In this document: positions 1-57,839 of the stretch, in pieces
Position numbering within the stretch: position 1 is the stretch's first letter
How the letters are laid out: every line of letters begins with the position of its first letter
DNA from: Candidatus Uhrbacteria bacterium
GTDB taxonomy: Bacteria; Patescibacteriota; Patescibacteriia; JACQRZ01
Direction: 5' to 3'
Length of the DNA: 64,000 bases
Assembly (NCBI GenBank): GCA_016206155.1
Contig: JACQSC010000004.1
Location: 147,591-211,590 of the forward strand
The notes under the pieces: generated by a model
The model's input: the letters and a program-made list of their open reading frames with translations, nothing else
Databases searched by the model: none
Told to the model about the DNA's origin: nothing
Translations under genes and position numbers: made by a program

Positions 1-1365
1 GCCGCCGCGTACAGTTGCGCAGCATACAGGTTACCAAGACAATAGGTCGGAAAGTAGCCGAAATAACCGCATGACCAATGCACGTCCTGCAAGCAGCCGC
101 GTGCGTCGTCGGGTACATCAATCCCAAGATACGTCTTCACTTTCTGATTCCAGACCGCGGGAATATCGTCAACAGCAACCGTCCCTTCGATAATCTCTCG
201 CTCTATTTCATATCGGATGATAATGTGAAGATTGTACGTCACCTCATCCGATTCGGTGCGAATCAAAGAAGGCGTAACACGGTTGAGATGGCGATAAAAC
301 TGCTCAAATGGAATGTCGGCAAACGGCTTTGGAAATGCCTTTTGAAGTCGCGGATACATCAATGTCCAAAACGATTTTCCTTTTCCGACATGATTTTCCC
401 ACAAACGAGACTGCGACTCGTGAATGCCGAGCGAAAGTGACTCGCCAAGCGGCGTACCAAAATGCTCTGCGGACAAGCCAAGATCATAAAACGCGTGTCC
501 GGCTTCATGAATAGAACTTCCGATTGAAAAAAATACATTATCACGATCGTACCGTGTCGTGATACGCACATCGCCCGCATGAAATCCTTGGGTAAAGGGG
601 TGAGTTGTTTGATCAAGACGTCCTCGATCAAAGGAAAACCCCATGTGCGCAAGCATCTCCTTGCAAAACGCCTCTTGCGCCGCAGGATCAAAATCTCCCG
701 CAAAAATTGGGTCTGTGCCTGACCACATTTTTGCTATGAACGGCACCAAAAACCCCTTCACCTCTTCAAAAATGGGATCAAAATCCTCAATGGTTGTATC
801 TTGCTCAAACCCATCAAGAAGCGCATTATATGGCGACACTTCATATCCGTAATACTCGGCCTTTTGCCTGTTCAGCTCGATAATTTTTTTAAGCCATGGC
901 GAGAAGATTGAAAAATCAGACTTCGCGCGTGCCTCAACCCATGGCGCGTGTGCATCCGATGTCACCTGAGCAAATTCTGCCACAAATGCTTTGGGTAGCT
1001 TTTTCTCTCGCGTAAAATCTCGCCACACCTCCCGAACAACACACGCCATTTCTTCGGAGAAAATGGGGTCTGGCTCAGTTTTTGCTCCTGCAAAATCTGT
1101 GCCTGACCCCATTTTCTCCGCTGAGCCTGACCCCATTTTCTCCGACCCCATTTTCTCGTGCAATTCTGTTATCAGTTTTTCAAATTCCGGGGAGGTAAAC
1201 TTTTCATGACACAACGCGCTCAACACAGAGATGGTTTGCCCGCGCCGTGCCGCGCCATCCTTTGGCATGTACGTCTCAAGGTCCCAGTGCAAGAGAGCCG
1301 TTGCCGATGAAAGGTGCGTCAGTTCAATAAGTTTTTCTCTTAGCTCTTGATATCTTTTTTGCATA
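1..1365 (-). CDS. M32 family carboxypeptidase (Taq-like), partial: the start codon is at ~1365 and the C-terminus lies beyond the window edge. It carries an in-frame insertion of the dispersed palindromic repeat at ~1058-1158.
   Basis: Hand translation of the minus strand from the ATG at 1363-1365 gives HEAGHA (HEXXH) and DVHWSCGYFGYFPTYCLGN motifs typical of the M32 carboxypeptidase Taq family. The ORF runs off the window, so it is absent from the ORF track. Confidence 0.7.
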
Positions 1366-3623: not shown

Positions 3624-3680
3624 GAAATGGAAATGGGGTCTGGCTCAATTTCCGAAGGAATTTGTGCCTGATCCCATTTC
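3624..3680 (+). repeat. Copy 2 of the dispersed ~50-nt imperfect-palindrome element, intergenic.
   Basis: AAATGGGGTCTGGCTCAATTTCCGAAGGAATTTGTGCCTGATCCCATTT. Confidence 0.8.
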
Positions 3681-9738: not shown

Positions 9739-9747
9739 CAGCATAAA

Positions 9748-15802: not shown

Positions 15803-15825
15803 AGATTTCTTCTCATGATATGGAT

Positions 15826-16023: not shown

Positions 16024-16701
16024 ATGCCGTTTAAAAATCGTGAAGAGGCTGGAATGCGCCTGGCGGAAAAACTTCTCGCATACAAAGATAATCCGTATGT
16101 CACCGTTATCGCGCTGCCGCGCGGTGGCGTGGTATTGGGTCGCAAGATAGCTGACGCGCTTCACGCGCCGCTCGACATTGTCGTCCCAAGAAAATTGGGC
16201 GCTCCGGACAATGAAGAGTATGCCATCGGTGCGCTCACAGAGGACGGGGGTGTGGTGTGGAACGAACTCGAAAAAAAACGCTATGGCGATGAAATACTCG
16301 CAATAATAGTGAAGCGTGAACGAAAGGAAGCGCTGCGCCGGCTTTCGATCTATCGAAAGGGATTGCCGTCCCGCGTTCTCAAAAATAAAATCGTCGTCCT
16401 TGTTGATGACGGCGTTGCAACAGGCTACACAATTCGCTCGGCGATAAAAACGATTGAAATCGAACAACCTGAAAAAATCATCGCTGCGCTTCCGGGGGGT
16501 CCCGAAGATACCATCAGTCTTCTCAAGAAAGAGGTGGATGAGGTTATCGTCCTTGAGATTCCTCAATTCTTTGCCGCGGTTGGGCAACTCTATGAGGACT
16601 TTCCACAAGTAACGGATTCACAAGTCATTGCGCTATTGGGGAAATGGGGTCTGGCTCAATTTCCGAAGGAATTTGTGCCTGACCCCATTTCCCCGTTATA
16701 A
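16024..16701 (+). CDS. Phosphoribosyltransferase-domain protein (COG1926-like). The C-terminal 17 aa are encoded by a dispersed repeat copy.
   Basis: PRTase core VLVDDGVATGYTIRSAI (PRPP-binding motif). The C-terminus ...KWGLAQFPKEFVPDPISPL derives from the repeat at 16642-16690. Confidence 0.7.
   Translation: MPFKNREEAGMRLAEKLLAYKDNPYVTVIALPRGGVVLGRKIADALHAPLDIVVPRKLGAPDNEEYAIGALTEDGGVVWNELEKKRYGDEILAIIVKRERKEALRRLSIYRKGLPSRVLKNKIVVLVDDGVATGYTIRSAIKTIEIEQPEKIIAALPGGPEDTISLLKKEVDEVIVLEIPQFFAAVGQLYEDFPQVTDSQVIALLGKWGLAQFPKEFVPDPISPL
16642..16690 (+). repeat. Copy 3 of the dispersed ~50-nt palindromic element, forming the 3' end of the PRTase CDS.
   Basis: AAATGGGGTCTGGCTCAATTTCCGAAGGAATTTGTGCCTGACCCCATTT. 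Confidence 0.85.
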
Positions 16702-16706
16702 CCCCT

Positions 16707-17612
16707 ATGAACGTATACACCTTACCCAACCCGCGCCCGCTCGAAATCAGCATCGCAAAAAAACTGGACAAAGCATTCGCGCGCAACACTGAATGGCGGC
16801 AATTCACCAACGGTGAATGGTTTCTCCGCATTACCAAAACCGCATCGAGTGTTATCGTCCTCGGACGCACAGAGCCACCGGCCGACAATCTCCTCCAAAC
16901 GCTCTTGCTTCTTGATACCCTCAAGAGAAACGGCGCAAAAAAAATCATACTCGTTGTGCCGTACTTCGGATACGGTCGCCAGGATCGTGTCGTGCGCAAT
17001 GGCGACCATCTCCCCGCCGATCTTTTTCTCACCCTATTCAAAACATGCGGGGCAAATCGTGTCATTACCGTTGATATTCATAGCCAAGCGACAAAAAAAA
17101 GCTCGTCACTTCCATTATATACCGTGGACTTCATGCCCGCTGTTGCCTCGTTCATGAAAAAAGAATCTTTTACAAAAGACGCCTTCACCATCGTCTCTCC
17201 CGATCATGGAGGTCGGCGACGGGCAGATCAACTGCGCGATCTTCTCAGCCCATCCTCCTCAGTCTGTTGGCTAAAAAAAATCCGTGACCCCAAAACAGGG
17301 GCTGTTCATTCTCGCGAACTCTTTGGCATGAAAAGAGGAACAACCGCACTCATTGTTGATGATATTCTTGATACCGGCGGCACCATTGCGCAAGCGGTTG
17401 GCGTACTAAAAAAACACGGCTTTACTACCTTTTATCTTGCCTCCACCCATCCGATTTTTTCCGCGCGCGCAACACAAACCATTCGCGCCCTTCGTTTCAA
17501 AAAAATAGTTACCTCAAACACTCTGCCGCTTTTATCAAGCACACAAAAAACCCTGCCGATCGTTGTGATCGATATCGCGCAGGAACTCACCGGCGCGATA
17601 ATGAACCGATGA
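16707..17612 (+). CDS. prs: Ribose-phosphate pyrophosphokinase (PRPP synthetase).
   Basis: PYFGYGRQDR, the DIHS block, and the PRTase-type C-terminal motif LIVDDILDTGGT. Confidence 0.85.
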   Translation: MNVYTLPNPRPLEISIAKKLDKAFARNTEWRQFTNGEWFLRITKTASSVIVLGRTEPPADNLLQTLLLLDTLKRNGAKKIILVVPYFGYGRQDRVVRNGDHLPADLFLTLFKTCGANRVITVDIHSQATKKSSSLPLYTVDFMPAVASFMKKESFTKDAFTIVSPDHGGRRRADQLRDLLSPSSSVCWLKKIRDPKTGAVHSRELFGMKRGTTALIVDDILDTGGTIAQAVGVLKKHGFTTFYLASTHPIFSARATQTIRALRFKKIVTSNTLPLLSSTQKTLPIVVIDIAQELTGAIMNR

Positions 17613-17614
17613 AG

Positions 17615-17660
17615 TGGTGTCAGGTACAAATTCCTTCCGGAAATTGAGCCAGGCACCATT
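17615..17660 (-). repeat. Copy 4 (degenerate, opposite orientation) of the dispersed palindromic element, between prs and the plsC-HAD gene.
   Basis: GGTGTCAGGTACAAATTCCTTCCGGAAATTGAGCCAGGCACCATTT. Confidence 0.6.
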
Positions 17661-19094
17661 TCACTTCTCGTGAATAATGCGCATTCCCAAGTTCTTACAG
17701 CGCGCACCGAATGATTTTTTTGGATTGACCAGAGCCGCATGTCCGACGCCCCTCAACATGGCATAGTCGTGATAGGAGTCGCCATACGCATAACTTTTAG
17801 AAAGATCAAGGTTGTGTTTTTTTGCCAGCTCTATCATTTTCTCTCGTTTGTATTCATCTTTCATCAGATGGCCTACCACCTCGCCGGTAAATACTCCTTT
17901 TTCCTTTTCAAGTATGGTTCCAAAACATGGAACGCCAAGCAGTTTTGAAATCGGATCGAGAATCTCTTGGGGCTCCTCACTTATGATGAACACCGCGTTT
18001 CCTTTTTCTTGATGGGAGCGGACGAGCTCAAGCATCTGAGGATAAAACAGCTCTTTTTTGTGTTTTTTCAGGTATCCATAAAATCCACTTAAAAATTCAG
18101 TAGCGCGAATGCCTTTCAACATTCGAATGGCGGCGAGATAAAAGTACCCGTGTTTAAGCAGCATTCGCTTTACGAGCAGACGAGGAATTTTCTGGAAATT
18201 ACCCGCGCTGACGTGCGCCATGAGATATCGCACAACCAATTTTTGATAGATATTTGAGCGCGTCAGCGTGTCGTCAAGATCAAAAAACGCAGCCCTCTTT
18301 CCGTGAGGAATGTGGGGAATACTCTGCTCTGAAAAATATGACTTGGGAAGGTGCTTTTTTATTCTTCTCTCCAAATACACCACATCCTCCAAAACATTTG
18401 AAGAAACATCCCACAGCGCAACCGGGGGCATAATCGTTGCCTCGAGGTGAACCGGATGAATCGTCACATGGTGGGTTGGAAAAAACGTATCGACATGCGC
18501 CAAGGTAATGGGGACAACCGGCGCACACGCCTCAAGCGCGATTTTAGCAACCCCGAGGTGAAAAGGGAGAAGCCGTTTTTTAAACTCGCGGCGCCCTTCG
18601 GGAAAAATAAGAAGCGACGTTCCACTTTTAAGCGTCGTGACACATGCGGCGATAGCTTGCTCGGCATGAATCGTTTCCTCGTACCTCAGCTCCTCGAACA
18701 CATCGCGCGAAACGCTAATGCACCCCATATGCGCAAACCATCGCCGAATGATGGGGGGGAACTCATCAAAAGGCGCCGTTATGGCGGCAAAGGGTCGGCG
18801 AACAATATGTAAAATGACGAGTGGGTCAAGATAGCTCTGGTGGTTTGCGGCAAACACGACCGGACACTCCGGTATCTTTTCGCACCCCGTAACCTTGATT
18901 CGAACACGAACGAGAAAAAACAGCGTATCAATTAAATGAAGAGAGAGCTTTCGCCACGCCTCAATATTTTGTGCGCGTTTACTGTCTCCAAACCGTATGT
19001 GTCCGTACAGAAAAAAAAGATAGAGTAGCGCCAAAAAAATCGTGTAAAAATACACGCTATAGATAACGCACTTAAGCTGGTGTGTCGCTCTCTT
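17661..19094 (-). CDS. Fusion protein: N-terminal 1-acyl-sn-glycerol-3-phosphate acyltransferase (PlsC) domain plus C-terminal HAD-superfamily (subfamily IB-like) hydrolase domain.
   Basis: Acyltransferase motifs NHQSYLD (HX4D) and FPEGRR, then the HAD motif I FFDLDDTLT. The track ORF start extends upstream, and its first codons overlap the cyclase gene. Confidence 0.7.
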   Translation of the reverse strand, partial: KRATHQLKCVIYSVYFYTIFLALLYLFFLYGHIRFGDSKRAQNIEAWRKLSLHLIDTLFFLVRVRIKVTGCEKIPECPVVFAANHQSYLDPLVILHIVRRPFAAITAPFDEFPPIIRRWFAHMGCISVSRDVFEELRYEETIHAEQAIAACVTTLKSGTSLLIFPEGRREFKKRLLPFHLGVAKIALEACAPVVPITLAHVDTFFPTHHVTIHPVHLEATIMPPVALWDVSSNVLEDVVYLERRIKKHLPKSYFSEQSIPHIPHGKRAAFFDLDDTLTRSNIYQKLVVRYLMAHVSAGNFQKIPRLLVKRMLLKHGYFYLAAIRMLKGIRATEFLSGFYGYLKKHKKELFYPQMLELVRSHQEKGNAVFIISEEPQEILDPISKLLGVPCFGTILEKEKGVFTGEVVGHLMKDEYKREKMIELAKKHNLDLSKSYAYGDSYHDYAMLRGVGHAALVNPKKSFGARCKNLGMRIIHEK

Positions 19095-23546: not shown

Positions 23547-25300
23547 TCTTTGCAGTAGACGCGCTCATCCAAAGCAGGGTCCCATGTCGTCTGGAATGGA
23601 CGCTTACACGGGGTCTGGCTCAATTTCGCTTGCGAATTTGTGCCTGACCCCATTTCCTGCCCGCCCCCGCTCTCATTCCGGCGAAGGCCGGAATCCAGTC
23701 CAGTTTTCAACTAATGCTGGCTGTGCGTCGCTTCACCACAATCACACGTCCCTGACCACAGCTGTTTTGGATTTCTCTTTGCCATTCGTGCCTTGTGGCG
23801 TTCAAGAAAACTTTTGTCTGGGACATGGATATTCAGGCGACGATAAAATGCCAGCTCTTGTTTGATATATTTGAACTTCTGGCCGGTGTCTTTATCTGCA
23901 AGAACTCTGTCACACCACGAGTCGTCGACGTCTTTGATGCTATCGGGAATTTCGGTTGCCTCGCCTCGCTTGATATCGGCAGAATCGTCCCAGCGAAATC
24001 CTTTTTCCAGTGCCTTCTCTTTTGAGAGGGGCATAAAAATCCCAGCATTGGATGTATTGTACGCAAAGGGACTGTACTCGGGTGGGAAGAACTCGCCCCA
24101 TTCGCCGGTTTCCTTCATATGCTCTATGAGTTTAGTGCGGAGCTTCTCATATTCATCTTTGGTGTATTGCTTGTTGAGGATGCAGTACTGGCCCTTTTTC
24201 AAGTTACTGCAGCCAAAACAATTTTGAATCGAGCGACAGAAATAGCAATAATCTACCTCAGCGCACCCCTCCATGACCCCCCAGCTCCACCGTATATTAT
24301 ACGAACTAAACCCGCAGACAGCCGAATAATAAAACCGGGAACTACCCTCCCCGCACTCAAACGTTTCATAACAATCCTTTATCGGTAAAAACGCTGCTTC
24401 ACAATACTTTGAATCCTCCACGCGAAACCCGTCATAACATTCAATCGCATTTTTTGAATTGATGAGATAATCACCAGTGCAATCAACATTACTCATCCCG
24501 TGCATATATTGCTTGGGAAATTTCTTTTTGTGCTCATCAAACTTTTCCGCCCACTCACGCACAACTGATCGGCGGGAAAGGTCGGCTCCCTGCAAACGTT
24601 TTTCGTATTCCTCCTTTGAGATCCTCTCGTTAAACCAATAGTACTCGGCATTTTTCAAATTCGCGCACCCAAAACAGTTTATACAGTTGGAGAGATTATA
24701 TCCGAAAATACATTCATTTGAGTCCTGAACATTTTGGCAATAGAAACATTTGTAGCATTTCAAACAGTCGATACATTCATAACACAGCTCTGATTCGCGC
24801 ACCTTCAAGCAGTCGACCGCGTCTTTACTGTTTTGAAGCGTATATGAATAATACGAATCTTCATTCACGTCGCTGTCAAAAACCAAATAACAGTTCTTTA
24901 CCGCGCTGCAATAGTTAATGTAATCGCTGTTTACGATATTCCCTTCAATAACAAAACGTGATGCGTGAGGGACGCTCCTATCGAGGTCTGCGAACTGCTC
25001 AAAAAATGGGCGAGAAAAATCAATATCGCGTGCGAAGGAACGCGCGTCCCATGAGTCGCCCCACCAGGCGGCATTGTTGTATACCGGGAATGGTGTACCC
25101 TCCGGGTACATTGCAAGTATCTGTTTTCCCGTGAGGTCGCATTTTCTTGGATAGAGCAATAATTCATTTTCCCACATGAGCTGAACCCGCCGCCGGCACG
25201 GATGGCACCGTCGTGGCGGAGGAACATCAAACGAACGAAAAAACTTGTGGTCTTTCTCATCAAATGAGAATTCTTTTTTACATTGAATGCAGATATTCAT
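23522..25300 (-). CDS. Cysteine-rich paralogue A of the unknown-function family. Its C-terminal zinc-ribbon region is disrupted by an in-frame TAG (23711-23713) plus two repeat insertions, so it is possibly a pseudogene.
   Basis: Collinear with paralogue B from MNICIQCKKEF to ...LWSGTCDCGEATHSQH, then a stop. The same frame continues LKTGLDSGLRRNESGGGQEMGSGTNSQAKLSQTPCKRPFQTTWDPALDERVYCKECYLEEVV, matching B's C-terminus. Confidence 0.6.
23609..23655 (-). repeat. Copy 5 of the dispersed palindromic element, inserted in-frame in the C-terminal region of paralogue A.
   Basis: GGGGTCTGGCTCAATTTCGCTTGCGAATTTGTGCCTGACCCCATTT. Confidence 0.8.
23675..23700. repeat. GC hairpin mini-repeat ATTCCGGC-GAAG-GCCGGAAT, adjacent to copy 5.
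   Basis: Perfect 8-bp stem, homologous to 20721-20748. Confidence 0.5.
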
Positions 25301-25370
25301 AGTACCGATACTATACATCTGCTTATGGCTGATGTCTATGTAGTCCTTCGCGTACTCTTTGAGCAACACC

Positions 25371-27667: not shown

Positions 27668-27671
27668 AGTA

Positions 27672-28201: not shown

Positions 28202-28241
28202 ATATCTATAGTATATACACCGGCTTATTTGTGTCAAACAA

Positions 28242-28737: not shown

Positions 28738-28991
28738 GTCTTTAGGTGTTCAAGAAAAGTTTTTGCATTGCTGAAGCGATAGGTCGGCTGATCGTTCATG
28801 GCGACGAAAACGCGATTTACAAATTCTGGACGATAGATGCCTTCGCCATCTTTTCCGGCAACACCAATAAGAAATGACCGAAGAAGTGTCATCTCTTTCT
28901 TGAGTGTCTTGATGTCTGCCGTGGCTGTGATCATAAGAGTATCTTTCCTCATGTACAGCGTAGCAAAATTTATGGCGCTGTCAAGCGCCAT
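28734..28991 (-). CDS. Cognate antitoxin of unassigned family.
   Basis: 85 aa, with a 4-nt ATGA overlap onto the downstream toxin. Confidence 0.5.
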   Translation of the reverse strand: MALDSAINFATLYMRKDTLMITATADIKTLKKEMTLLRSFLIGVAGKDGEGIYRPEFVNRVFVAMNDQPTYRFSNAKTFLEHLKT

Positions 28992-28994
28992 ATG

Positions 28995-30453
28995 TCACAC
29001 GATCTCCTTCTGATAGCATCCCTCGCAATAAATCTTCTCCGGGCGGTCGGGGGCATAGGTGGTTTCAAATTCTATCGGACAGCGACTGCCGTGATCATGG
29101 CCTTGGCGATCACACATGCACTGCCGGTGATAAAATTCAAAAGCGTTGCGATGGTTCATTCGCTGTCTATGCCGTTCTTCCGGGTGCAAGCGGGGGAGTG
29201 GAAGATTAAAGCGTTTATAGAACGCCAACTCTTGTTTGATAATTTTGTAATTCTTCCCCGTCTTTTCACATGCCAATATTTCTTTGCAGATCGACTCATC
29301 TACCGCTTGAATGTCGTTTGGTATATCGCCCCATGAGATTGTCTCCTTTCCTGTTGTAACGGGGATATCGTCTTGCCAGTTGTATCCTTGTGCAAGCGCC
29401 GCTTCTTTTGAGAGGGGATAAAAATCCATTGCGACTGTTTCGTTATATCCAAACGGAGAGATGCGAGGATCAAACGACAGCCCCCACTCGCCCGTCTTCT
29501 TCATGTGCTCAATAATCTTTTCGCGCAGGACTGCGTATTCGTCTTTTGAGTGTTGCGTATTGAAAATACAGTATTGTTTTACTTTTACTCCGCTGCACCC
29601 AAACAGATTGGTTGACGACAAACAGAATTCGCTGTAGTCAACGTCAGAGGATTTGCTCACGACAACGATACACCACCGAAGGCGCTGACAGTCGGCGCCA
29701 CTGGCAAGCGACTCGTATACAAGCTCGGCCCGTTCGCCAACATAGCAGGACCGCAGTGAATCGCGCAAACCGGGAAAACCCGTATGAACATCGCGGCAGT
29801 TTTCTCCTTCGTACATTTGATAACAATCAACGCAGTTCTTTGACTTCGTAATATATTCGCCAACACATCCTTCAGAATTGTAATTGTAATTGCACCGACG
29901 GGGAAAGCCCCGCACATACTGCTCGAAAAAAGCCTTCTGTTCATCAAGCGGCCTTTGTCTGAACTCTTTGGCTTTTTGTTCGTATTCTTCTTTGCTGTAC
30001 TGCGTGTTCATGAAACAATGGCTCTTGTGTTTCATGTTGCAGCAGAGGAAGCAGTCAGAACAATCCGAGCAGTCCTTGAGAAACTGCGAGGAATGACAGT
30101 TCTGTGAGTCGACCACATACTGGCACGCATAACACTGCTGGATGCCGACACATTCGTAGCACAGCTCGCTTCCAAGCGCGTAATCAGTGTCGACGCAGCT
30201 GCGGCTTTCTTGCGCCAAATTACAGTAGAGGCAATCCTCCATCATGTTTCCCGCAAATGACAGGTAGGAATTTTTTGTGTGGTAACTATAATTGATGTAG
30301 TCGGCGTTTTCGTTATTCGCAACCATCCGCGCCGCGCGCGGCACACTTTTTAGTAGAACATACTGCGGGCTCCGGTACGTTCAGCCGTTCCAATAATCCC
30401 CGATTCGCATCGGTGATCTCAAATTGATTCTTACACTGCGCACAGGGATTCAT
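28995..30453 (-). pseudogene. Cysteine-rich paralogue C. Its N-terminal zinc-ribbon segment (30313-30453) is frame-shifted relative to the body (28995-30344), and about 85 codons are deleted between them.
   Basis: The upstream frame reads MNPCAQCKNQFEITDANRGLLERLNVPEPAVCS...stop. The body frame reads ...SPQYVLLKSVPRAARMVANNENADY..., matching B's ...FFDQLKDLFRSVPQIAMMSKSGENSDF. The C-terminus ...HRQCMCDRQGHDHGSRCPIEFETTYAPDRPEKIYCEGCYQKEIV is intact. Confidence 0.6.
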
Positions 30454-33406: not shown

Positions 33407-33616
33407 ATCGAATAAAGCTCATGAATCTTTCACTAGCATACCGTATGTAATAAAAAATGTAAACGAGGGGCTTGCTTTTTTTCTTATTCACATTACACTG
33501 GTTGTTATTCACATGATATCCACACTCTATACACTCGCTCGTTCTTTTATTGTTTTTGGTCCCATGCTACAATCCACGCGTTCTCAATTTACTCTTTCTT
33601 CAATCCTTTTGTGCAT
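33407..33616. promoter_or_regulatory. rpmH-dnaA intergenic region with DnaA-box-like 9-mers: TTATTCACA x2 at 33484 and 33505, ATATCCACA at 33516.
   Basis: One-mismatch matches to TTATCCACA, located at the classical origin position. Confidence 0.5.
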
Positions 33617-35002
33617 ATGAATACCGTCCAGCTCTGGCAGGCTACGCTCGGTGAGCTTGAGATCCTCTTGAGTAAACCGAATTTCAGCACATGGTTCCGC
33701 GAAACATTTGTTGTTTCGCATGAGAATAATAAGGTTGTCATTGGTGTCCCAAACGCGTTTACAAAAACCTATCTCGAAAAAAAGTATCATGTTCTCATCG
33801 TTCGCGCGCTTCGCAATGTGGCGCCCGAGACAATCAAAGATGTGCTCTACAAAGTTGAACTCAAAGATCTCAGAAAACAGGCTGACCCACCCTTCGCTTC
33901 CGAACCCGACGTGTTCAGCCAAGCTCTCGGCCAGTCATTTGCCAAGCAAAGCGCTCCTAGGCCCGAACACGTTACTCCGGCAGGTCTGAATCCGCGCTAT
34001 ACCTTTCATAATTTCATTGTCGGGAAATACTGCGAGCTTGCACATGCGGCTTGCCAGGCGGTCTGTGACACGCCCGGTGAAACATACAACCCGCTATTTA
34101 TCTATGGGGGGGTGGGCCTTGGAAAAACACACCTCCTCCAGGCGGTTGGTCACGAGATCCTTACTCGCAGTCCTGAGAAGCGGGTGTTGTTTGTTACGTG
34201 TGAAAAGTTTTCAAACGACTACATTCAAGCCGTTCGCTCGGGGCGCGCAAAGGAGCTTAAAGACACCTACCGCAGCGTTGACGTTCTCATCATCGACGAT
34301 GTTCAGTTCCTTTCAAGTAAAGAGGGGACCCAGGAAGAGTTCTTTCACACCTTTAATGCGCTCCATCAAACAAATCGTCAGCTTATTATATCTTCAGACC
34401 GCCCGCCAAAAGCAATCCCAGCAATCGAGGGGCGTCTTCTCTCCCGCCTCGAGTGGGGCATGATCGCCGACATTACCAGCCCCGACCTTGAAACGCGCAT
34501 CGCTATTTTAGAAACAAAATGCAAGGAGAAGGGTGTTCGGGTTTCCGGCGATATTATCAACTATATCGCAACAATGGTGCACAACAACATCAGGGAGCTT
34601 GAGGGGGCGCTCAACCGCATTTTGGCGTACAGCCAGCTCAACAACGAGGAGCTTGGGTTTGAAAAAATAAAACAAATCCTCTCGTCCCTTACGATGAGCT
34701 ATGCTAAAAAATCAATCACACCAAAACAGATTGTTTCACTTGTCGCTGAATTTTATAATCTCGCGATTGGCGATCTTATCGGTGAGTCGCGAAAGCGAGA
34801 ACTTGCCATTCCGCGTCAAATTAGCATGTATCTCATGCGCGAGGAAATAAAGTGTTCCTTCCCGACAATCGGACAAGAAATAGGGGGGCGCGACCACACA
34901 ACCGCCATACACGCATACAATAAAATTCAGCGGGATGTTGACGAAAGTCCAAAAGTAAAACAGGATATTGATCTTATTCGCCAACGTATGTACAACATCT
35001 AA
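33617..35002 (+). CDS. dnaA: Chromosomal replication initiator DnaA.
   Basis: Walker A GGVGLGKTHLLQAVG, an AAA+ core, and the C-terminal DNA-binding helix region. Confidence 0.9.
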   Translation: MNTVQLWQATLGELEILLSKPNFSTWFRETFVVSHENNKVVIGVPNAFTKTYLEKKYHVLIVRALRNVAPETIKDVLYKVELKDLRKQADPPFASEPDVFSQALGQSFAKQSAPRPEHVTPAGLNPRYTFHNFIVGKYCELAHAACQAVCDTPGETYNPLFIYGGVGLGKTHLLQAVGHEILTRSPEKRVLFVTCEKFSNDYIQAVRSGRAKELKDTYRSVDVLIIDDVQFLSSKEGTQEEFFHTFNALHQTNRQLIISSDRPPKAIPAIEGRLLSRLEWGMIADITSPDLETRIAILETKCKEKGVRVSGDIINYIATMVHNNIRELEGALNRILAYSQLNNEELGFEKIKQILSSLTMSYAKKSITPKQIVSLVAEFYNLAIGDLIGESRKRELAIPRQISMYLMREEIKCSFPTIGQEIGGRDHTTAIHAYNKIQRDVDESPKVKQDIDLIRQRMYNI

Positions 35003-35213: not shown

Positions 35214-36332
35214 GTGAATATCTCTTGCCTTCAAGAAAATCTCTCCTCATCACTTTCACTCGTACGCGCAGGTATTGGAAAGGAAACCGGACTCACTATT
35301 CTTTCAACAATCCTTATTCGCGCCGAGGAAAAGTTTATTTATCTCAACACAACAAATCTTGAGGTTGCCATTCAGTGTACTGTTCGGGGCAAAGTTGAAG
35401 AAGAAGGAAGTATTGCATTACCAGCAAAAACATTTACTGACTTTATTTCACTTCTTCCAAAAGAAAAAATTGAACTTAAAAAAATCGACACCACACTCGA
35501 GATTACATGTGGAGCGTACCATACAAAAATTCACGGGATGGTTCCTGATGAATTTCCACTTATCCCACCGCCAGAAGGCGGAAGCGTTCTTACGTGTTTA
35601 CAGAAGGATTTAAAGGGCGCGCTTTTCTCTGTGGGCCATGCGGCCTCACAACAAGAAACACGTCCCGAACTTCATGGTGTATTATTTCAATGGGTACAAG
35701 AAAAAAATCACTGTGTGTGCGTCGGAACAGACGCATATCGGCTCGCCGAAACGTTTATTAAGGCGCGCGGAAACACACCGGATGTTTCGTGCATCATCCC
35801 CCTAAAAACAGTATATGAACTTTCACGAACGCTTCTCTCCGATGATGACAGTGAATGTGAGGTTTGTATTACCGACACGCAAGTGAGCATAAAAACAGAT
35901 ATGGTTGAGTGTGTGTCAAAGATTGTTCAAGGGGCATTTCCCGATTATCACAGCATTATTCCCCAACACATCGTTACGCGCGCCGTGCTTGAGCGTGACG
36001 AATTAAACCGCGCGGTGAAGGCAACAAGCCTTTTTTCTCGAGGGGGGCTGCATGATGTGGTTTGTCACCTTGTTCCAACCGACGGGACCCGCGGCACCGT
36101 TACTCTATCATCATCAAATGCAAGCGTAGGTGAAAACACCGTTACTCTCGATGCAGAAATGACCGGCAGTGAGAATACTATCACGCTTAATTATCGCTAT
36201 CTTCTCGATGGGCTTTCCCATATGGAGTCAGATGTCGTTTCGTTTGAAGTTGTTGACACACAAAGCCCCTGTATTTTAAGGCCTGCGGGTAAGGGGGAGC
36301 TTACCTATCTCATCATGCCAATCCGCGAATAA
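35214..36332 (+). CDS. dnaN: DNA polymerase III beta sliding clamp.
   Basis: 372 aa immediately after dnaA. Three-domain length and the C-terminal MPIRE are typical of the family. GTG start. Confidence 0.8.
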   Translation: MNISCLQENLSSSLSLVRAGIGKETGLTILSTILIRAEEKFIYLNTTNLEVAIQCTVRGKVEEEGSIALPAKTFTDFISLLPKEKIELKKIDTTLEITCGAYHTKIHGMVPDEFPLIPPPEGGSVLTCLQKDLKGALFSVGHAASQQETRPELHGVLFQWVQEKNHCVCVGTDAYRLAETFIKARGNTPDVSCIIPLKTVYELSRTLLSDDDSECEVCITDTQVSIKTDMVECVSKIVQGAFPDYHSIIPQHIVTRAVLERDELNRAVKATSLFSRGGLHDVVCHLVPTDGTRGTVTLSSSNASVGENTVTLDAEMTGSENTITLNYRYLLDGLSHMESDVVSFEVVDTQSPCILRPAGKGELTYLIMPIRE

Positions 36333-39367: not shown

Positions 39368-39443
39368 TTTGTCATTCCGGTCCATCTGGGGCACTCGGGA
39401 TAAACTCCGGGCGGGATCCGGACCATAAAAATGTTTTTTCATT

Positions 39444-40195: not shown

Positions 40196-40317
40196 AAAAA
40201 AGCCAAAACCAAACATAACAGAATTGCTCTGCCCATGAATTCAGTATAGCACAAATTACCTCCTATTGCAAGACGGGGTTGTGGCAAATTGGTTGGCGTG
40301 ATAAGGTTGTTCTTATG

Positions 40318-41409
40318 AACATCGGAATCGTTGGCTTGCCCAACGTAGGAAAATCAACACTGTTTAAGGCGTTGACAAAAAAACAGGTCGATATTGCAAA
40401 CTATCCGTTCTGCACCATTGATCCCAATGTTGGTGTTGTGAAGGTGCCGGATGAACGGCTTGCACGATTGGCGGAACTCTCGCATTCGGCAAAGATTGTT
40501 CCGACGAGCATTGAATTTGTTGATATCGCCGGACTCGTAAAGGGTGCGTCTCAAGGAGAGGGGCTAGGCAACAAGTTTCTTTCACACATTCGCGAAGTGG
40601 ACGCGATTGCGCACGTTGTGCGCGTGTTCCATGACAAAAACATCATTCATGTTGCCGGCGAACCAAAGCCAATTGAAGACATCGATGTTATTAATCTTGA
40701 ACTGATCTTTGCCGACATGGCGACGCTTGAAAAGAGAATTGGCGCAACAAAGAGCCAGATGAAAAGCGGCAAAACGCGTATTCTCGAGGAGCAACTTTGT
40801 ATATACGAGAAGGTATATACATGCCTTGAGTCGGGTGCGCCAGCAAACAGGCTTGATCTTTCCGATGAGGAAAAAGAGACAACGCGCGACCTTCATCTTT
40901 TGACGCTCAAGCCATTTCTTTACGTGCTCAATGTTGACGAGGAAATGGGGTCTTGCTCAGTTTCCCGAAGGGAATCCGCGCCTGACCTCATTTCAGAGAT
41001 TGAGCAAAGACTCGCGGGCTATACAATCGTGGCGCTCTGCGCTCAAGCCGAGGCCGATATGGCCGACCTTTCGGACGAAGAGGTGCGCGAGCTTGGAATG
41101 AAGCGAACAGGCCTTGACACGTTTATTACCGTCGCTTACAAACTTCTAGACCTGATTACATTTTTGACAACCGGGCCGGACGAAACCCGTGCGTGGACCA
41201 TTCGTAACGGGACAAAGGCGCCGCAAGCGGCAGGCGTGATTCATACCGACTTTGAAAAAGGATTTATCCGTGCTGAAACAATTAACTGGAAAGACCTTGT
41301 CGACGCCGGCGGTGAAGTTGCCGCAAAAGAGAAGGGGCTTATCCGTCTTGAAGGGAAAGAATATATTGTTCGCGATGGCGACGTGATGGTCTTTCGGTTC
41401 AGCGTGTAA
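40318..41409 (+). CDS. ychF: Ribosome-binding ATPase YchF. It carries an in-frame insertion of the dispersed repeat (encoding EMGSCSVSRRESAPDLIS) at 40943-40993.
   Basis: MNIGIVGLPNVGKSTLF G1 motif, a C-terminal TGS domain, and an insertion between conserved blocks. Confidence 0.85.
   Translation, partial: NIGIVGLPNVGKSTLFKALTKKQVDIANYPFCTIDPNVGVVKVPDERLARLAELSHSAKIVPTSIEFVDIAGLVKGASQGEGLGNKFLSHIREVDAIAHVVRVFHDKNIIHVAGEPKPIEDIDVINLELIFADMATLEKRIGATKSQMKSGKTRILEEQLCIYEKVYTCLESGAPANRLDLSDEEKETTRDLHLLTLKPFLYVLNVDEEMGSCSVSRRESAPDLISEIEQRLAGYTIVALCAQAEADMADLSDEEVRELGMKRTGLDTFITVAYKLLDLITFLTTGPDETRAWTIRNGTKAPQAAGVIHTDFEKGFIRAETINWKDLVDAGGEVAAKEKGLIRLEGKEYIVRDGDVMVFRFSV
40943..40993 (+). repeat. 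Copy 6 of the dispersed palindromic element, in-frame inside ychF.
   Basis: AAATGGGGTCTTGCTCAGTTTCCCGAAGGGAATCCGCGCCTGACCTCATTT. Confidence 0.75.
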
Positions 41410-42706
41410 CTTTTTCAAACACAAACAATTCGCGGGCGACACGAGCATCGGGTCTGGAAATGACAAGAGAGCCGCGCTCGGTTACGCCCGAAAGAACGCG
41501 ACGCAGAGAGTCTGGAACCGTTACGTTTATAAAGCCTTGCTTCATCAGCGCGTTGAGGCAGGGAATATGTCGTTGCCGGGAGTCGGCCATCCAAACTGGG
41601 AAAACAATCACAACGCGACCCGCGCGCGCGAGCGCCTCGTGAAATGAGCGGAAGCTTTGAATATAGAGATCGCAGAGCGCATCAATTTCTTTTTCAGAAA
41701 CATGTTGGTGGCGCGCTGAAAGCGCTGGTCCCAGCGTTGGCTCAGTGACGATCGCACCGATTGAGCGCTTTGGAAAGCACGACGCGAGTTTTTGCGCGTC
41801 ACAGTGCTTTACGGATACGCAAACGGGGTCAGGCACAGATTTTGCAGCAGCAAAAACTGAGCCAGACCCCGTTTGAGCCAGACCCCATTTCTTAAGCCAC
41901 GAAATATTCTCTTTTGTCGCACCGACGTTCTTCTCATCAATATCGCTTCCTGATACATTGGTATATTCAAGCAGCAGCGCCTCCTGCAAGACAGTCCCAA
42001 GTCCACAAAACGGATCAAGAAGCGACGCATCTTTTTCGGCCCTCGCGAGATTAATCATGATGCGGGCAAGCTTTGGGGGGAGGAGGCCGGTTTTCATGTC
42101 TCGATGCGGACGGCCGTAATCACGGCGCGCATATTCTTCAAATTCCTGCACCGCGGCGGTGATGCCGATGTCGATCGTATCATTATCGATCAACAAAACG
42201 TATTCAACGTTCGGCTCTGTCACGAGATGATTTTTTTCAACAACAACCGATGACAGGGCTGTTGCGCCGTGCTGTGGAGCGACAAAACGCGCAGAAACGC
42301 CATGTTCCCGCAGACACTTTTTAAGAGCAATTCCTTCTCTCTGGATCCAAAGCGCGATGCGACGCGCTTCATTTCCCTTGAGCGGTTTTTGTGATACGCT
42401 GTATGCACTGACGCCAAAGGTTATTCGTTCGTGTGCGGCAGTCGATCGTCCCAAAAGATCGTTCGTGATATATGCGGCAGCGCAAGAAAAATCTTTTTTT
42501 GTTGAACCCATGACCCTGCCACCCTTTATGGCTCCGCCAAGACGATGGATGAGGGGCACAGTATCAAGAACACCATCAAAGGAAAATGGTATTGCCTCAC
42601 TTCCGGCGCGATCAAGAGCGAGCGACCCGCCGTTATGTGAGAGGACGGCGCATAACTCAAGTAATGAAAGTGAGGGAAGCCGTCCCGGAATAAGGAAGTA
42701 GTTCAT
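41399..42706 (-). CDS. THUMP-domain RNA methyltransferase (UPF0020/Trm11/RlmL-like). It carries an in-frame insertion of the dispersed repeat at 41824-41890.
   Basis: Class I SAM motif DPFCGLGTV. The internal segment KWGLAQTGSGSVFAAAKSVPDPV is encoded by the repeat. The start is probably the ATG at 42704-42706. Confidence 0.7.
   Translation of the reverse strand: MNYFLIPGRLPSLSLLELCAVLSHNGGSLALDRAGSEAIPFSFDGVLDTVPLIHRLGGAIKGGRVMGSTKKDFSCAAAYITNDLLGRSTAAHERITFGVSAYSVSQKPLKGNEARRIALWIQREGIALKKCLREHGVSARFVAPQHGATALSSVVVEKNHLVTEPNVEYVLLIDNDTIDIGITAAVQEFEEYARRDYGRPHRDMKTGLLPPKLARIMINLARAEKDASLLDPFCGLGTVLQEALLLEYTNVSGSDIDEKNVGATKENISWLKKWGLAQTGSGSVFAAAKSVPDPVCVSVKHCDAQKLASCFPKRSIGAIVTEPTLGPALSARHQHVSEKEIDALCDLYIQSFRSFHEALARAGRVVIVFPVWMADSRQRHIPCLNALMKQGFINVTVPDSLRRVLSGVTERGSLVISRPDARVARELFVFEKVTR
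41824..41890 (-). repeat. Copy 7 of the dispersed palindromic element (with a partial duplication), in-frame inside the methyltransferase gene.
   Basis: Reverse complement GGGGTCTGGCTCAAACGGGGTCTGGCTCAGTTTTTGCTGCTGCAAAATCTGTGCCTGACCCCG. Confidence 0.8.
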
Positions 42707-44008
42707 ATGTTTCAAGTGATCATTATTGTATGTGCGCTTGTCGGCTTTGCGTATGTTGCGTGGCGCAGTCGAGAGCAGGCTGTTGCTCTTATTGTCTTTG
42801 CGCTTCCGCTGTATCTGATGCGCTTTTCAATCTGGTCCGTTCCGTCAACGCTCCTTGAAGGAGCGATCCTCATTCTTTTTATCGTATGGGTATTGAAAAA
42901 AGGAGGGGTCAGCGGTGCTGTGCGTTGCATGCAAGACAGGATCAATGGTGCGCAGCGTGCGGAGCGCTTGCTCTATCTCTTTCTCTTTTTTCTTGTTCTC
43001 TCCGCAACGGTGAACATTGCGTTTTCTCCGGATATGCGGGCTGGCCTTGGCGTGTGGCGTGCGTACTTTGTGGAGCCGGCACTCTTTTTTATCGTTTTTC
43101 TTGACACCATGAGATCTGCCGAACAGGTTCGCCGCGCGATCTCCGCGAGCATCCTTTCAGGGGCGCCGATCGCGTTGTTGGCAGTATATCAAAAACTTAC
43201 CGGATGGAATATCCCCGCGCCATGGGATGTTGAGAGGCGGGTAACGAGTATCTACCCTTACCCCAATGCCGTTGGACTCTATTGTGCGCCGATCATATGG
43301 CTTGCCATAGGAAGAATACGAGAGTCAATCGGCGAGAAGAAAATTTTTCATGCATTTGGCATGGCGGGGACCGCTCTTCTTTTGGTTATTGCGTTGACAT
43401 TCTCTAAGACAGAGGCCGCCGTTGTGGCGCTTGCCGTTTCTTTTTTTGGGGTTGGCATGCTATGGAGCGTGCGTGCGCGTATCGTCACGCTTGGCATCGC
43501 GGCGGTCGGACTGTTGATTTTTTTCTTTGTTCCGATGGTGTCTGCACCCCTTACAGAAAAAATGCTCTTGAAGGATTGGTCTGGACAAGTACGGATAGCG
43601 ACCTGGACAGAAACGGTCGCGATGCTTAAAGACCATCCGTTCACCGGAGCGGGCTTGGCCGGATATCAGATGTCGCTTGAGCCGTACCACACGCATGAGT
43701 ATCTGGAAATTTTTCTCTATCCCCACAGCATCATCTTAAACTTTTGGAGCGAGACGGGACTGTATGGCGCTGTAAGCATCATGTTGGTTTTTGTAACACT
43801 TTTTGTCCTGTGCGCAAAAACGATCCGTAAAAAAAGGCACAGGGACACCATGATAGGCACGACCGCTTTTGCTATCGTCGCAGCGCTTGTGACAATCCTC
43901 GTCCACGGTCTTGTTGATGTGCCCTATTTTAAAAACGATTTGGCGATTTTTTTCTGGTTTCTTGCGGCAAGCGTTATTGCCCTTCATCGTCTGTCATATG
44001 AATCGTAG
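42707..44008 (+). CDS. O-antigen ligase/polymerase (Wzy_C)-like polytopic membrane protein.
   Basis: 433 aa with at least 10 TM segments and a large periplasmic loop. Family assignment is by topology only. Confidence 0.5.
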   Translation: MFQVIIIVCALVGFAYVAWRSREQAVALIVFALPLYLMRFSIWSVPSTLLEGAILILFIVWVLKKGGVSGAVRCMQDRINGAQRAERLLYLFLFFLVLSATVNIAFSPDMRAGLGVWRAYFVEPALFFIVFLDTMRSAEQVRRAISASILSGAPIALLAVYQKLTGWNIPAPWDVERRVTSIYPYPNAVGLYCAPIIWLAIGRIRESIGEKKIFHAFGMAGTALLLVIALTFSKTEAAVVALAVSFFGVGMLWSVRARIVTLGIAAVGLLIFFFVPMVSAPLTEKMLLKDWSGQVRIATWTETVAMLKDHPFTGAGLAGYQMSLEPYHTHEYLEIFLYPHSIILNFWSETGLYGAVSIMLVFVTLFVLCAKTIRKKRHRDTMIGTTAFAIVAALVTILVHGLVDVPYFKNDLAIFFWFLAASVIALHRLSYES

Positions 44009-48852: not shown

Positions 48853-48929
48853 GGAGAAACTAGGGACAGTCACCGTTTTTGAACTGGCATGAGTCATTGT
48901 TATACTTTGCAGAAACGGTGGCTGTCCCC
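48853..48929. promoter_or_regulatory. 16-bp inverted repeats GGGACAGTCACCGTTT...AAACGGTGGCTGTCCC, 45 bp apart, bracketing a TTATACT -10-like element upstream of tag.
   Basis: 15/16 complementary bases. Confidence 0.3.
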
Positions 48930-48956
48930 GTTTCCCGTTCAAGGGAGAGAATTAAT

Positions 48957-57756: not shown

Positions 57757-57839
57757 GTCTGGATTCCCCGGCAGAGCCGGGCAAGCTGGCCGGAGTTTAT
57801 CCCGAGTATTACCGAGGGACCGGAACGACAATCGAATAT

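Follow-up and report, generated by a model that had tools for sequence, protein, structure and literature searches.

The 64,000-nt stretch of Candidatus Uhrbacteria DNA analysed here (the window) carries a dispersed imperfect palindrome, several copies of which lie in-frame in protein-coding genes without interrupting them. These copies are probably short non-autonomous hairpin repeats of the REP/RPE/minimal-MITE kind, and their expansion would be a recent event within a single Uhrbacteria lineage. The repeat family itself appears to be undescribed, while in-frame selfish hairpin DNA is already known. The positions of the copies are given in Table 1.

Table 1. Copies of the palindromic repeat and a divergent relative in the window.
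Feature	Position	Strand	Core	Score (bits)	Gene	Remarks
M32 carboxypeptidase, second, collapsed copy	704..730	+				Left terminus fused to right arm: AAATTGGGTC joined to TGTGCCTGACCACATTT
M32 carboxypeptidase, compound copy	1055..1158	+	1065-1110, 46 nt			Palindrome 1055-1120; partial right arms 1121-1144 and 1145-1158
Intergenic copy	3629..3680	+	3635-3675	51.6		
Phosphoribosyltransferase 3'-end copy	16638..16694	+	16646-16686, 41 nt	58.1	16024-16701 +	Young
Copy exactly filling a convergent-gene spacer	17611..17662	-	17616-17657	52.5		
Intergenic copy	23602..23657	+	23610-23651	61.9		Top match
ychF copy	40942..40995	+	40947-40989, 43 nt	24.4	40315-41409 +	Old and degenerate
RlmL-like/UPF0020 SAM methyltransferase copy	41821..41890	-	41825-41870, 46 nt	52.4	41399-42715 -	
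Divergent relative, intergenic	48854..48935					Membership uncertain; GGGACAGTCACC ... GGTGGCTGTCCC, ~40-nt spacer; not detected by model R1

The palindromes form one family, represented in the window by seven full copies, one collapsed copy and partial arms. The core consists of GGGGTC-T-GGC-T-CA, a variable stem-loop and TG-T-GCC-T-GACCCC. From its base, the stem starts with six base pairs (GGGGTC/GACCCC), continues past a T.T mismatch into a GGC/GCC stem and, after another T.T mismatch, reaches a C-G pair; in the Uhrbacteria window the flanks (GGAG)AAAAT...ATTTT(CTCC) form an added outer stem. Elements are 42-64 nt in size, with core lengths of 41, 42, 43 and 46 nt among the window copies, and their arms are terminal inverted repeats as in MITEs. 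The terminal 10-mer (at most one mismatch) was counted 24 times, compared to an expectation of 4.2, and 0 of 100 shuffles reached the observed number. A covariance model (R1) detected the seven full copies with E values from 4e-10 to 8e-3, and young copies folded as single-stranded DNA reach -25 to -29 kcal/mol (z = -9 to -11). Above the C-G pair the apical stem-loop varies in sequence and length while pairing is kept: compensatory changes were seen at apical pair 14/41 (AT 36, TA 18, GC 3), and pair 19/36 is CG in 32, GC in 17 and TA in 9 cases. The covariation score was 0.153 versus 0.078 in shuffles, and none of 500 shuffles reached 0.153. The two T.T mismatches are kept in 72 and 73 of 74 unique variants, in a set for which two substitutions per arm had been permitted.

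The window also contains the origin of replication (dnaA-dnaN; skew switch near 33-36 kb). To the left of the origin the strand ratio of the copies is 5 to 1 and to its right 1 to 1, numbers too small to reveal a replication-strand bias. A second palindromic family has a copy at 23673-23698, adjoining one of the intergenic copies described here.

In ychF, the sequence at 40943-40993 is AAATGGGGTCTTGCTCAGTTTCCCGAAGGGAATCCGCGCCTGACCTCATTT, and the copy encodes E210-S227 (EMGSCSVSRRESAPDLIS) directly after the G4 motif NVDE. A YchF orthologue with 85% identity (P0002, on L004) has the element at the identical site, whereas orthologues P0003-P0010 (81-83% identity) have a 10-residue native loop and no element. 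The DNA hairpin of this copy is weak (-11 kcal/mol). Between the window and L004, 9 of the 18 codons of the element differ, five non-synonymously and four synonymously, and 13 of its 18 residues (72%) are identical compared to 85% for the rest of YchF. With its hairpin decayed and its sequence evolving freely, the ychF copy looks tolerated rather than selected. The AlphaFold model of YchF, built with 116 sequences, had a mean pLDDT of 88 and a TM score of 0.89 to E. coli YchF (8KIE); a version with 24 close sequences gave a pLDDT of 53. Residues 214-219 have pLDDT values below 50, and 213-222 are coil between a strand (201-206) and a helix (223-232). The segment is thus modelled, at low confidence, as a disordered coil behind the G4 strand, in line with the loop position that the original prediction had proposed to look for in the structure.

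The methyltransferase insert, KWGLAQTGSGSVFAAAKSVPDPV, lies in-frame between motif II (GSDID) and motif III (CDA), and the copy carries an extra partial arm at 41874-41890. Syntenic orthologues on L001 and L002 have a shorter, unrelated loop at this position. The M32 carboxypeptidase gene (minus strand, 3-1364, continuing past the window edge) contains two copies. Its compound copy is in-frame and encodes EKMGSEKMGSGSAEKMGSGTDFAGAKTEPDPIFS. At this site an M32 orthologue from the sister genome JACQWH01 (P0122) has a copy of another subfamily with a 41-nt core, while 14 other orthologues read 'DARxAGxLD' and lack the element. The second, collapsed copy, which the earlier reading had missed, encodes KMWSGTDPIF in a hypervariable loop, and 16 of the 17 bases of its right arm match; in orthologues the loop is native and 13 residues long, and P0128 has a copy of the family there. 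Length variation among homologues suggests that the M32 and methyltransferase sites are variable loops. The M32 mRNA bears the A.A strand, which makes the compound copy inverted relative to the ychF copy.

At the end of the phosphoribosyltransferase gene, a copy supplies the C-terminal tail GKWGLAQFPKEFVPDPISPL; the next gene begins 5 nt downstream. Orthologues stop 2-6 residues past '...EVIxLL', and relatives P0242, P0243 and P0245 have the element at this gene end in other frames. The copy on the minus strand between the convergent genes for PRPP synthetase (16707-17612 +) and an acyltransferase/HAD protein (17661-19136 -) overlaps with its termini the TGA stops of both. Two further copies are intergenic. 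One follows a ParE/YafQ-type toxin gene (3312-3572 +) at a distance of about 60 nt, and the other lies about 54 nt beyond the stop (23711) of a Cys-rich gene, 23711-25369(-). With the gene-end copy counted, the intragenic share in the window is 5 of 9 copies.

The original prediction had the repeat in-frame in at least five genes, always in the same orientation and with a length that preserves the frame. In-frame copies were found in ychF, the methyltransferase, M32 (two sites) and the phosphoribosyltransferase tail, and the peptides quoted for these genes were right, including EKMGSEKMGSGSAEKMGSGTDFAGAKTEPDPIFSEE for M32; all four host ORFs are intact and confirmed by Pfam. The supposed fifth gene, the Cys-rich paralogue, is not interrupted, as its copy lies beyond the stop. 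A single orientation does not hold either, since the T.T mismatches and strand-specific model scores show the M32 copy to be inverted relative to those in ychF, the methyltransferase and the phosphoribosyltransferase. Frame preservation by length applies to cores leaving a remainder of 1 on division by three (43 and 46 nt), but not to the commonest 41-42-nt forms alone.

Orthologues at 70-83% identity were without the segments, and model R1 had no matches in about 75 kb of three related genomes (L001, L002, L003, L091). The segments are therefore lineage-specific insertions. This agrees with the MITE-like reading proposed earlier: orthologue alignments and the YchF model place MITE/RPE-like palindromes in variable loops or termini of ORFs that stay open. 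In ychF, M32 site 1 and KsgA the element stands in place of 7-12 native loop residues and is not a clean insertion, which simple cut-and-paste would not predict. Such replacement is ruled out as a general rule by RmlD, where the insertions are clean and 15-16 residues long. The flanks of the element are inverted rather than direct repeats, and comparisons of filled and empty sites, which showed either replacement or clean insertion, revealed no target-site duplication.

Read either way, the palindrome gives almost one peptide, MGSG[ST]...[VE]PDPI[F], because its ends are identical on both strands. Among internal copies, 14 of 15 are entered in the MGSG (Gly/Ser) frame in either orientation (P = 5e-4 against two open frames, 2e-6 against three); the other open frame would give a Trp/Leu-rich peptide. 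At C-termini all three frames are used. We infer from the sequences that the inserts are translated and that the frame bias was caused by purifying selection.

Exact arms were found at 81 or more loci in 15 Planctomycetota, 11 Nitrospirota and 2 Uhrbacteria metagenome-assembled genomes and 3 others, compared to about 0.005 matches expected by chance as estimated from the collection size; since the collection scan required exact arms, their invariance across phyla is partly by construction. A metagenome scan with the Uhrbacteria-type flanks gave only two loci. The sister genome JACQWH01 has copies in RadA, RecG, KsgA and a GT2-Wzy protein, and the hosts of the family also include RecQ and GyrA. 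A single RmlD gene contains three in-frame copies, and a planctomycetotal RecQ has about 44 extra residues spanning two in-frame copies between its RecA-like domains. Judged from gaps relative to solved homologues, the inserts in M32, the methyltransferase, RecQ and RmlD would lie in surface loops away from catalytic motifs. T-rich tails come after many of the Nitrospirales copies.

An all-against-all comparison of 1,678 ORFs from 80 loci revealed no recurrent protein family near the copies that could represent a mobilising gene; the only clusters were ABC, PAS, TPR and orthologous host genes. No ORF with an HUH...Y (Y1) motif was found by a regex scan of the window and about 700 kb of sampled loci, and in the same sequences a motif scan and clustering detected no RAYT near copies. 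Neither a GTAG nor a CGTC tag stands beside the stem in the flanks of 85 copies. No parent IS with the same termini was found in the sampled loci, and blastn searches of plasmid and phage sequences with the consensus elements were likewise without a meaningful match. Searching the whole window against Rfam at the gathering threshold returned no family, only generic hairpin resemblance to miRNA precursors. An E-value threshold applied around two copies gave only generic sub-threshold hairpin matches to miRNA models, and the Rfam search found no ribozyme or intron signature. A consensus scan gave no support for an intrinsic terminator, which has a U-run after a G+C-rich stem: no copy in 1-20000 was flagged, and the tails are just ATTTT(C). 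Our literature search found no paper on the arm sequences and nothing specific on CPR repeats.

Comparison with known systems makes it likely that the Uhrbacteria element is of the RPE or intragenic-REP kind. Rickettsia palindromic elements (RPEs), reportedly described by Ogata et al. in 2000, are said to be in-frame hairpin repeats in Rickettsia genes. RPEs are summarised in PMC3733652 and PMC3184786. The Uhrbacteria element resembles them as a dispersed hairpin repeat that lies in-frame in numerous housekeeping genes of a small, densely coding genome, with orthologues that lack the segment and a peptide tolerated outside conserved cores; neither element encodes a protein of its own, and for neither has a transposase been identified. 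The two are set apart, by description, in that RPEs are about 100-150 bp and restricted to Rickettsia, whereas the Uhrbacteria element is 42-64 nt with a mismatched core. It is also common to Uhrbacteria, Planctomycetota and Nitrospirota, and the symmetry that yields the same peptide from both orientations is more extreme. REPs are imperfect palindromes of 20-50 nt, high in copy number and mostly intergenic (PMC3733652; PMC3116915), and are also treated together with REPINs by Bertels & Rainey 2011 (PMC3116915). Their definition includes a GTAG (or CGTC) tetranucleotide at one stem end (PMC3733652). Di Nocera et al. 2013 (PMC3733652) describe a minority inside ORFs, 'many within replication and repair genes', and RecQ, RecG, RadA and GyrA are likewise among the hosts of the present family. 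REP/REPIN and the Uhrbacteria element have in common the short imperfect palindrome, the high copy number and subfamilies common to several species. They differ in that the present copies have no GTAG/CGTC tag, in that no RAYT, an HUH Y1 transposase whose gene REPs usually flank, was found near them in the sampled loci, and in the much higher intragenic fraction of the CPR genome.

Small inverted-repeat elements that modify proteins include Neisseria Correia/NEMIS and cyanobacterial small dispersed repeats. Small MITEs combine terminal inverted repeats with target-site duplications and mostly have a candidate parent IS; neither a duplication nor a parent was seen for the Uhrbacteria element. 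Coxiella QMITEs (PMC5896051) are similar as non-autonomous inverted repeats that extend or interrupt ORFs and give start or stop codons. PARCELs (PMC2996958) are also palindromic coding repeats, alike on both strands and horizontally spread among distant microbes. However, PARCELs are tandem intragenic arrays found in the surface proteins of Mollicutes and of certain eukaryotic microbes (PMC2996958), whereas Uhrbacteria-type copies are single, dispersed and in cytoplasmic enzymes.

Could the hairpin be a selected functional nucleic-acid motif (protein-binding ssDNA or RNA, a terminator, or a determinant of mRNA stability), with the coding copies a by-product? We regard this as unlikely. More than 97% of variants retain the T.T mismatches despite complete, compensated replacement of the apical stem, the core is common to three or four phyla, and T-rich tails after Nitrospirales copies and the spacer copy that bridges convergent genes and supplies both stops would fit such a role. 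However, only generic Rfam hairpins resemble the repeat, its copies face either way with respect to transcription and those in 1-20000 are not flagged as intrinsic terminators, and no gene class is regularly adjacent. Furthermore, copies are missing from sister genomes with conserved synteny, and the ychF copy lost its hairpin while the gene was retained. Selection may instead act on the peptide MGSG...PDPIF as a linker, modification or interaction site. This would explain the constant frame in 14 of 15 internal copies whatever their orientation and the recurrence of the peptide in unrelated enzymes. We nevertheless hold it to be very improbable, as the hosts are functionally unrelated, orthologues work without the peptide, the modelled YchF segment is disordered and C-terminal copies occur in any frame, as expected of tolerance. 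In ychF, the only copy old enough for this comparison, the element is less conserved than its host and non-synonymous codons outnumber synonymous ones by five to four. The original prediction had left tolerance as surface loops and selection for a peptide module side by side; the data favour the former.

The chance that the segments are ancestral, or that host genes are pseudogenes or assembly artefacts, appears negligible. The native loops of ychF, M32 site 2 and KsgA do faintly resemble the element ends (RMGA...NIF, GPAV...ENESFFF), but the DNA belongs to a dispersed repeat that has intergenic copies too, and most orthologues, outgroups included, are without the segments, which contradicts the ancestry that would have spoken against insertion. 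The window host genes have intact ORFs with full-length Pfam matches and PDB homologues, and independent assembly into Logan contigs gave the same sequences. Hardly more credible is that the mRNA loses the inserts by excision or that ribosomes skip over them, as for T4 gene 60 or mitochondrial 'byp' elements. The hairpins within ORFs are stable, and the outer stem GGAGAAAATG looks like a Shine-Dalgarno sequence followed, in the preferred frame, by ATG. Yet an open frame, lengths divisible by three and a strong frame bias would be needless if the segments were skipped, and a ribozyme or intron signature is lacking.

Under the preferred reading as a non-autonomous hairpin repeat, many new copies would land in genes because the CPR genome is almost wholly coding. 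Copies that survive would be those in variable surface loops, linkers or gene ends, with a total length divisible by three and read in the single frame that gives a Gly/Ser...Pro/Asp peptide. They would be translated as disordered loops, followed by neutral decay of hairpin and peptide. Since the conserved mismatches are strand-specific, mobility via a single-stranded hairpin intermediate is suggested, with a putative trans-acting enzyme recognising the hairpin. We put forward only as a speculation, and one with a rather low probability, that the T.T hairpin is the substrate of such a ssDNA-hairpin enzyme, moves between Planctomycetota, Nitrospirota and CPR Uhrbacteria, which have groundwater and soil habitats in common, and enters genes when loop-coding DNA is repaired from a template or replaced via short homology, with no cut-and-paste step. 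Entry by templated repair would account for the 7-12 vanished native residues and for the native loops that faintly resemble element ends. If true, the element may be a marker of DNA passing between CPR episymbionts and the organisms that host them.

The repeat brings the RPE phenomenon, selfish hairpins in essential genes, into the Candidate Phyla Radiation, whose compact genomes offer new copies almost no landing place other than genes. It provides a natural experiment in protein tolerance, with a 17-18-residue Gly/Ser/Pro/Asp peptide in eight hosts (YchF, M32 carboxypeptidase, SAM methyltransferase, RadA, RecG, KsgA, RmlD and RecQ). The copies lengthen proteins and break assemblies, and may mislead annotation and alignment of CPR proteins. 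One exact core in three or four phyla raises the testable question of what mobilises elements this small and how they come to be exchanged.

The sequence at 40943-40993 of the window, AAATGGGGTCTTGCTCAGTTTCCCGAAGGGAATCCGCGCCTGACCTCATTT, lies within ychF and is a member of a dispersed, hairpin-forming family (repeat families D1, D3, D4 and D9; inverted pairs I1-I22). The terminal 10-mer of this element occurs 24 times (at most one mismatch) against 4.2 expected, a count reached in 0 of 100 shuffles. A covariance model was built on 28 unique 42-nt cores, the core being the central part of the palindrome, and a search of the window with all filters off found seven full copies (see the table). A further copy is located immediately past the left edge of the window (contig L092, 3299-3340).

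The core consists of GGGGTC-T-GGC-T-CA, an apical stem-loop, and TG-T-GCC-T-GACCCC. The two Ts of each arm oppose each other as T.T mismatches, and as A.A on the complementary strand, so that the near-palindrome has a polarity; the T.T strand scores 25-30 bits above the other strand in the covariance model. The apical stem is wholly different among subfamilies (ATTTCC-GAA-GGAATT; GTTTTTGC-TCCT-GCAAAATC; TTTTCTT-CCG-AGAAAA), while pairing is kept. Among 74 unique variants, pair 14/41 is AT in 36, TA in 18 and GC in 3, pair 16/39 is TA in 59 and CG in 9, and pair 19/36 is CG in 32, GC in 17 and TA in 9. T.T is kept at the two mismatches in 72 and 73 of these variants, which were collected with two substitutions permitted per arm. 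In the 42-nt alignment the covariation score was 0.153 compared to 0.078 after shuffling (observed value reached in 0 of 500), and sliding the partners made the pairing collapse. In Uhrbacteria copies the palindrome continues outward as (GGAG)AAAAT ... ATTTT(CTCC). As single-stranded DNA, young copies have folding energies of −25 to −29 kcal/mol (z = −9 to −11).

Coordinates of element copies, other repeats and further features (window positions unless a comparison locus, L, is named)
Feature	Coordinates	Strand	Remarks
Full copy	1065-1110		core; covariance model
Full copy	3635-3675		core; covariance model
Full copy	16646-16686		core; covariance model
Full copy	17616-17657		core; covariance model
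Full copy	23610-23651		core; covariance model
Full copy, in ychF	40947-40989		core; covariance model
Full copy	41825-41870		core; covariance model
Collapsed copy	704-730		M32 site 2
Extra partial arms	1121-1158
Extra partial arms	41874-41890
Putative divergent relative	48854-48935
Second repeat	20720-20745; 23673-23698
Third repeat	39369-39410; 57790-57831		inverted
Cys-rich paralogues	23711-25369; 25934-27730; 28995-30344	−	plus smaller ORFs
Loci with repair/replication hosts	L018 1165-1311; L011; L025; L074; L070 3658-3705; L042; L058

Four genes of the window carry the element in their reading frame. Pfam assigns them to Peptidase_M32 (E = 5e-158), YchF (MMR_HSR1 plus YchF-GTPase_C), an RlmL-like UPF0020 methyltransferase and a phosphoribosyltransferase (PRTase). 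The original prediction counted at least five such genes; we find three interrupted internally, at four sites, and one whose C-terminal tail is replaced. The fifth, Cys-rich paralogue A, drops out, since its copy (23602-23657) is downstream of the stop codon and intergenic. The methyltransferase had been described as a THUMP protein; its insert is present, and a THUMP domain was not detected by Pfam.

Comparison with orthologues bears out that these segments are insertions. YchF orthologues of 81-83% identity (P0003-P0010) read NVDE-A[SA]DLE[GD]T[AS][YF]x-EVEQ without the element, and the intact window gene reads NVDE-EMGSCSVSRRESAPDLIS-EIEQ, in frame between the conserved blocks as predicted. 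An orthologue of 85% identity (P0002, contig L004) has NVDE-EMGSGSVSGSESVPDPISS-EVEQ, with the copy recognisable in its DNA; the ychF insertion is therefore common to two lineages and missing from the next ones. Between motif II and motif III of the methyltransferase, where the window gene has its insert, two syntenic orthologues have a shorter unrelated loop. At M32 site 1, 14 orthologues including outgroups show EL..DARxAGxLDEE, and the window protein has the predicted insert as a 35-residue compound; the sister genome JACQWH01 (P0122) holds a copy of another subfamily, with a 41-nt core, at the same place. Site 2 is a hypervariable loop that contains a collapsed copy (KMWSGTDPIF) in the window and another copy of the main family in P0128. 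PRTase orthologues stop 2-6 residues beyond ...EVIxLL, while the window protein, as foreseen, runs on through the element as GKWGLAQFPKEFVPDPISPL; relatives P0242, P0243 and P0245 have the element at the same end, read in other frames. Relatives that conserve the synteny (L001, L002/L003 and L091, ~75 kb from three genomes) contain no copies. In relatives a ~550-aa gene without Pfam match lies between ychF and the methyltransferase gene (L002 11084-12793; L001 11144-12748); in the window it is missing and the 3′ ends of the two genes overlap (41409/41399).

The claim that all coding copies share one orientation did not hold: the mRNAs of ychF, methyltransferase and PRTase contain the T.T strand, and M32 mRNA the A.A strand. 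Both palindrome ends read AAATGGGGTC[T/A]GGC..., and because they are alike, either orientation yields a (K)MGSG[S/T] entry and a [V/E]PDPI(F) exit. Frames were counted for 15 copies internal to long ORFs, taken from the window and other low-GC loci (JACQWH01 RadA with two copies, RecG, KsgA and a GT2-Wzy protein; a TsaD-family (Pfam) ORF with two copies, two ORFs without Pfam match, and metagenomic RmlD with three copies). The MGSG entry frame was used in 14 of 15; at every core length only one of the three entry frames is closed, which gives P = 5e-4 for a two-frame null (2e-6 against three frames). When an internal copy preserves the frame and both its ends are in the "good" frame, its core measures 40, 43 or 46 nt (remainder 1 mod 3). 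The idea that length preserves the frame thus applies to these forms but not to the commonest ones, of 41-42 nt, taken alone. C-terminal copies use all three frames, a result that fits the prediction of a selection filter and speaks against an insertion process with an intrinsic preference for one frame. The outer stem GGAG-AAA-ATG (1055-1066, 16638-16648 and other copies) resembles a Shine-Dalgarno sequence plus start codon, and its ATG is in the frame that internal copies use; where a copy is close to an ORF's 5′ end (L065, L075, L085), it might introduce a new translation start or displace the existing one. At 17610-17663 the copy termini (TGAAGT... / ...ATTTCA) overlap the TGA stops of both convergent neighbour genes.

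The element substitutes for native loop residues (10 in ychF, 7 at M32 site 1, 13 replaced by 9 at M32 site 2, ~11 in KsgA), and inspection of the flanks showed no direct target duplication at any copy. At some replaced sites the native loops faintly resemble the element ends (RMGA...NIF; GPAV...ENESFFF). Over-long loops may have been trimmed afterwards, the surviving copies may be those that mimic the native loop, or insertion may have gone through templated repair or short homology. Clean insertion exists too, in RmlD. Searches near the copies found neither a RAYT or IS200-like gene nor any other gene that recurs. The most likely mobiliser, though unproven, is a putative enzyme that would recognise the hairpin in single-stranded DNA.

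Scanning one genome per GTDB species for GGGGTCTGGCTCA-N(8-30)-TGTGCCTGACCCC gave at least 81 loci versus ~0.005 chance matches estimated from collection size. The matches listed include 15 Planctomycetota, 11 Nitrospirota and 2 Uhrbacteria MAGs, 2 MAGs labelled Gammaproteobacteria and 1 unclassified MAG; the megabase contigs of one Planctomycetaceae MAG carry at least 16 loci. The arms are invariant across phyla partly by construction, as exact arms were required, and apical stem and flanks are lineage-specific in every lineage. In high-GC phyla most copies are apparently intergenic, e.g., between tandem TPR genes (L064). L065 and L072, binned as Gammaproteobacteria, carry Uhrbacteria-type copies at 45-48% GC, and L065 apparently has a cluster of mur/ftsW cell-wall genes; both could be low-GC CPR contigs that were mis-binned. 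That one hairpin element passes between phyla, inserts by replacement and is moved by such a putative enzyme seems to us improbable.

No Rfam family, plasmid or phage matched the element, and a literature search found no paper containing the arm sequences. A consensus scan of window positions 1-20000 flagged no copy as an intrinsic terminator and so gave that reading no support. A GTAG/CGTC tag beside the stem defines the two REP super-families (PMC3733652); the element has no such tag. In their catalogue of intragenic REPs, Di Nocera et al. (PMC3733652) noted a leaning toward replication and repair genes, and the element is like these REPs in that its intragenic hosts are enriched for these functions (RecQ, RecG, RadA, GyrA N-terminus). 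It functionally resembles Rickettsia palindromic elements and intragenic REPs, but differs in its small size, mismatched core, near-identical coding in both orientations and cross-phylum spread.

Window GC is ~48-50%. The replication origin probably lies within the window, because the sign of the GC skew switches near 33-36 kb, with the cumulative minimum nearby, and ORFs 33611-35002 and 35214-36332 occupy the position of dnaA and dnaN in syntenic relatives. On the + strand, the ratio of T.T-strand to inverted copies is 5 to 1 on the left side of the origin and 1 to 1 on the right side (few copies). The third repeat (42 nt, 83% complementary, GTCATTCCGGTCC...CTCGGGATAAACTCCGG) has one copy directly before the likely start of RuvC and one preceding the gene at 57840. 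The 16S rRNA gene (5505-7947, − strand) is interrupted by a group I intron (6229-7186 listed) with ORF 6254-6811, a configuration common in CPR bacteria; directly downstream of the 16S gene, another ORF (4701-5228) has a LAGLIDADG-like motif, and there is a match to group II intron D1-D4 (5166-5248 listed). The Cys-rich cluster (23711-30344; repeat families D2, D5, D6 and D17) shares conserved blocks of 50-100 nt, and 23711-25369, the cluster gene scanned, had no Pfam match.

An AlphaFold model of the window YchF (116 homologues, mean pLDDT 88) matched E. coli YchF on the 50S subunit (8KIE) with a TM of 0.89. Here, in line with the suggestion of a surface loop, the insert is modelled as coil (213-222; pLDDT < 50 at 214-219) between strand 201-206, ending in the G4 motif NVDE, and helix 223-232. 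Other Uhrbacteria YchF proteins (P0015, P0016, P0020) have a different palindromic insert, SVIPAQAACPPPCGGIQSS, in this loop, which marks a repeatedly tolerated site. The window also contains a second palindromic repeat that is unrelated to the main one, TCATTCCGGCGAAGGCCGGAATCCAG; its apparent inserts in other Uhrbacteria are read in frame (SVIPAQAACPPPCGGIQ, SLPRTAIRGRDD) and occupy the main element's loops in these YchF proteins, M32 (P0124/P0129, site 2) and PRTase (P0242). Planctomycetota RecQ has 64 residues, containing two copies, between its two RecA-like domains versus 20 in E. coli RecQ (1OYW); RmlD copies correspond to clean 15- and 16-residue gaps in solved homologues, and KsgA has a net gain of only ~6 residues. 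The ychF copy is of sufficient age to be tested for constraint: between the window and L004, 9 of its 18 codons differ (4 synonymous, 5 non-synonymous), residue identity is 13/18 compared to 85% for the entire protein, and the hairpin has decayed (−11 kcal/mol, z = −2). Of the two explanations originally offered, these data favour loop tolerance over selection for a peptide module: once within a gene, both peptide and hairpin appear to be free of constraint.
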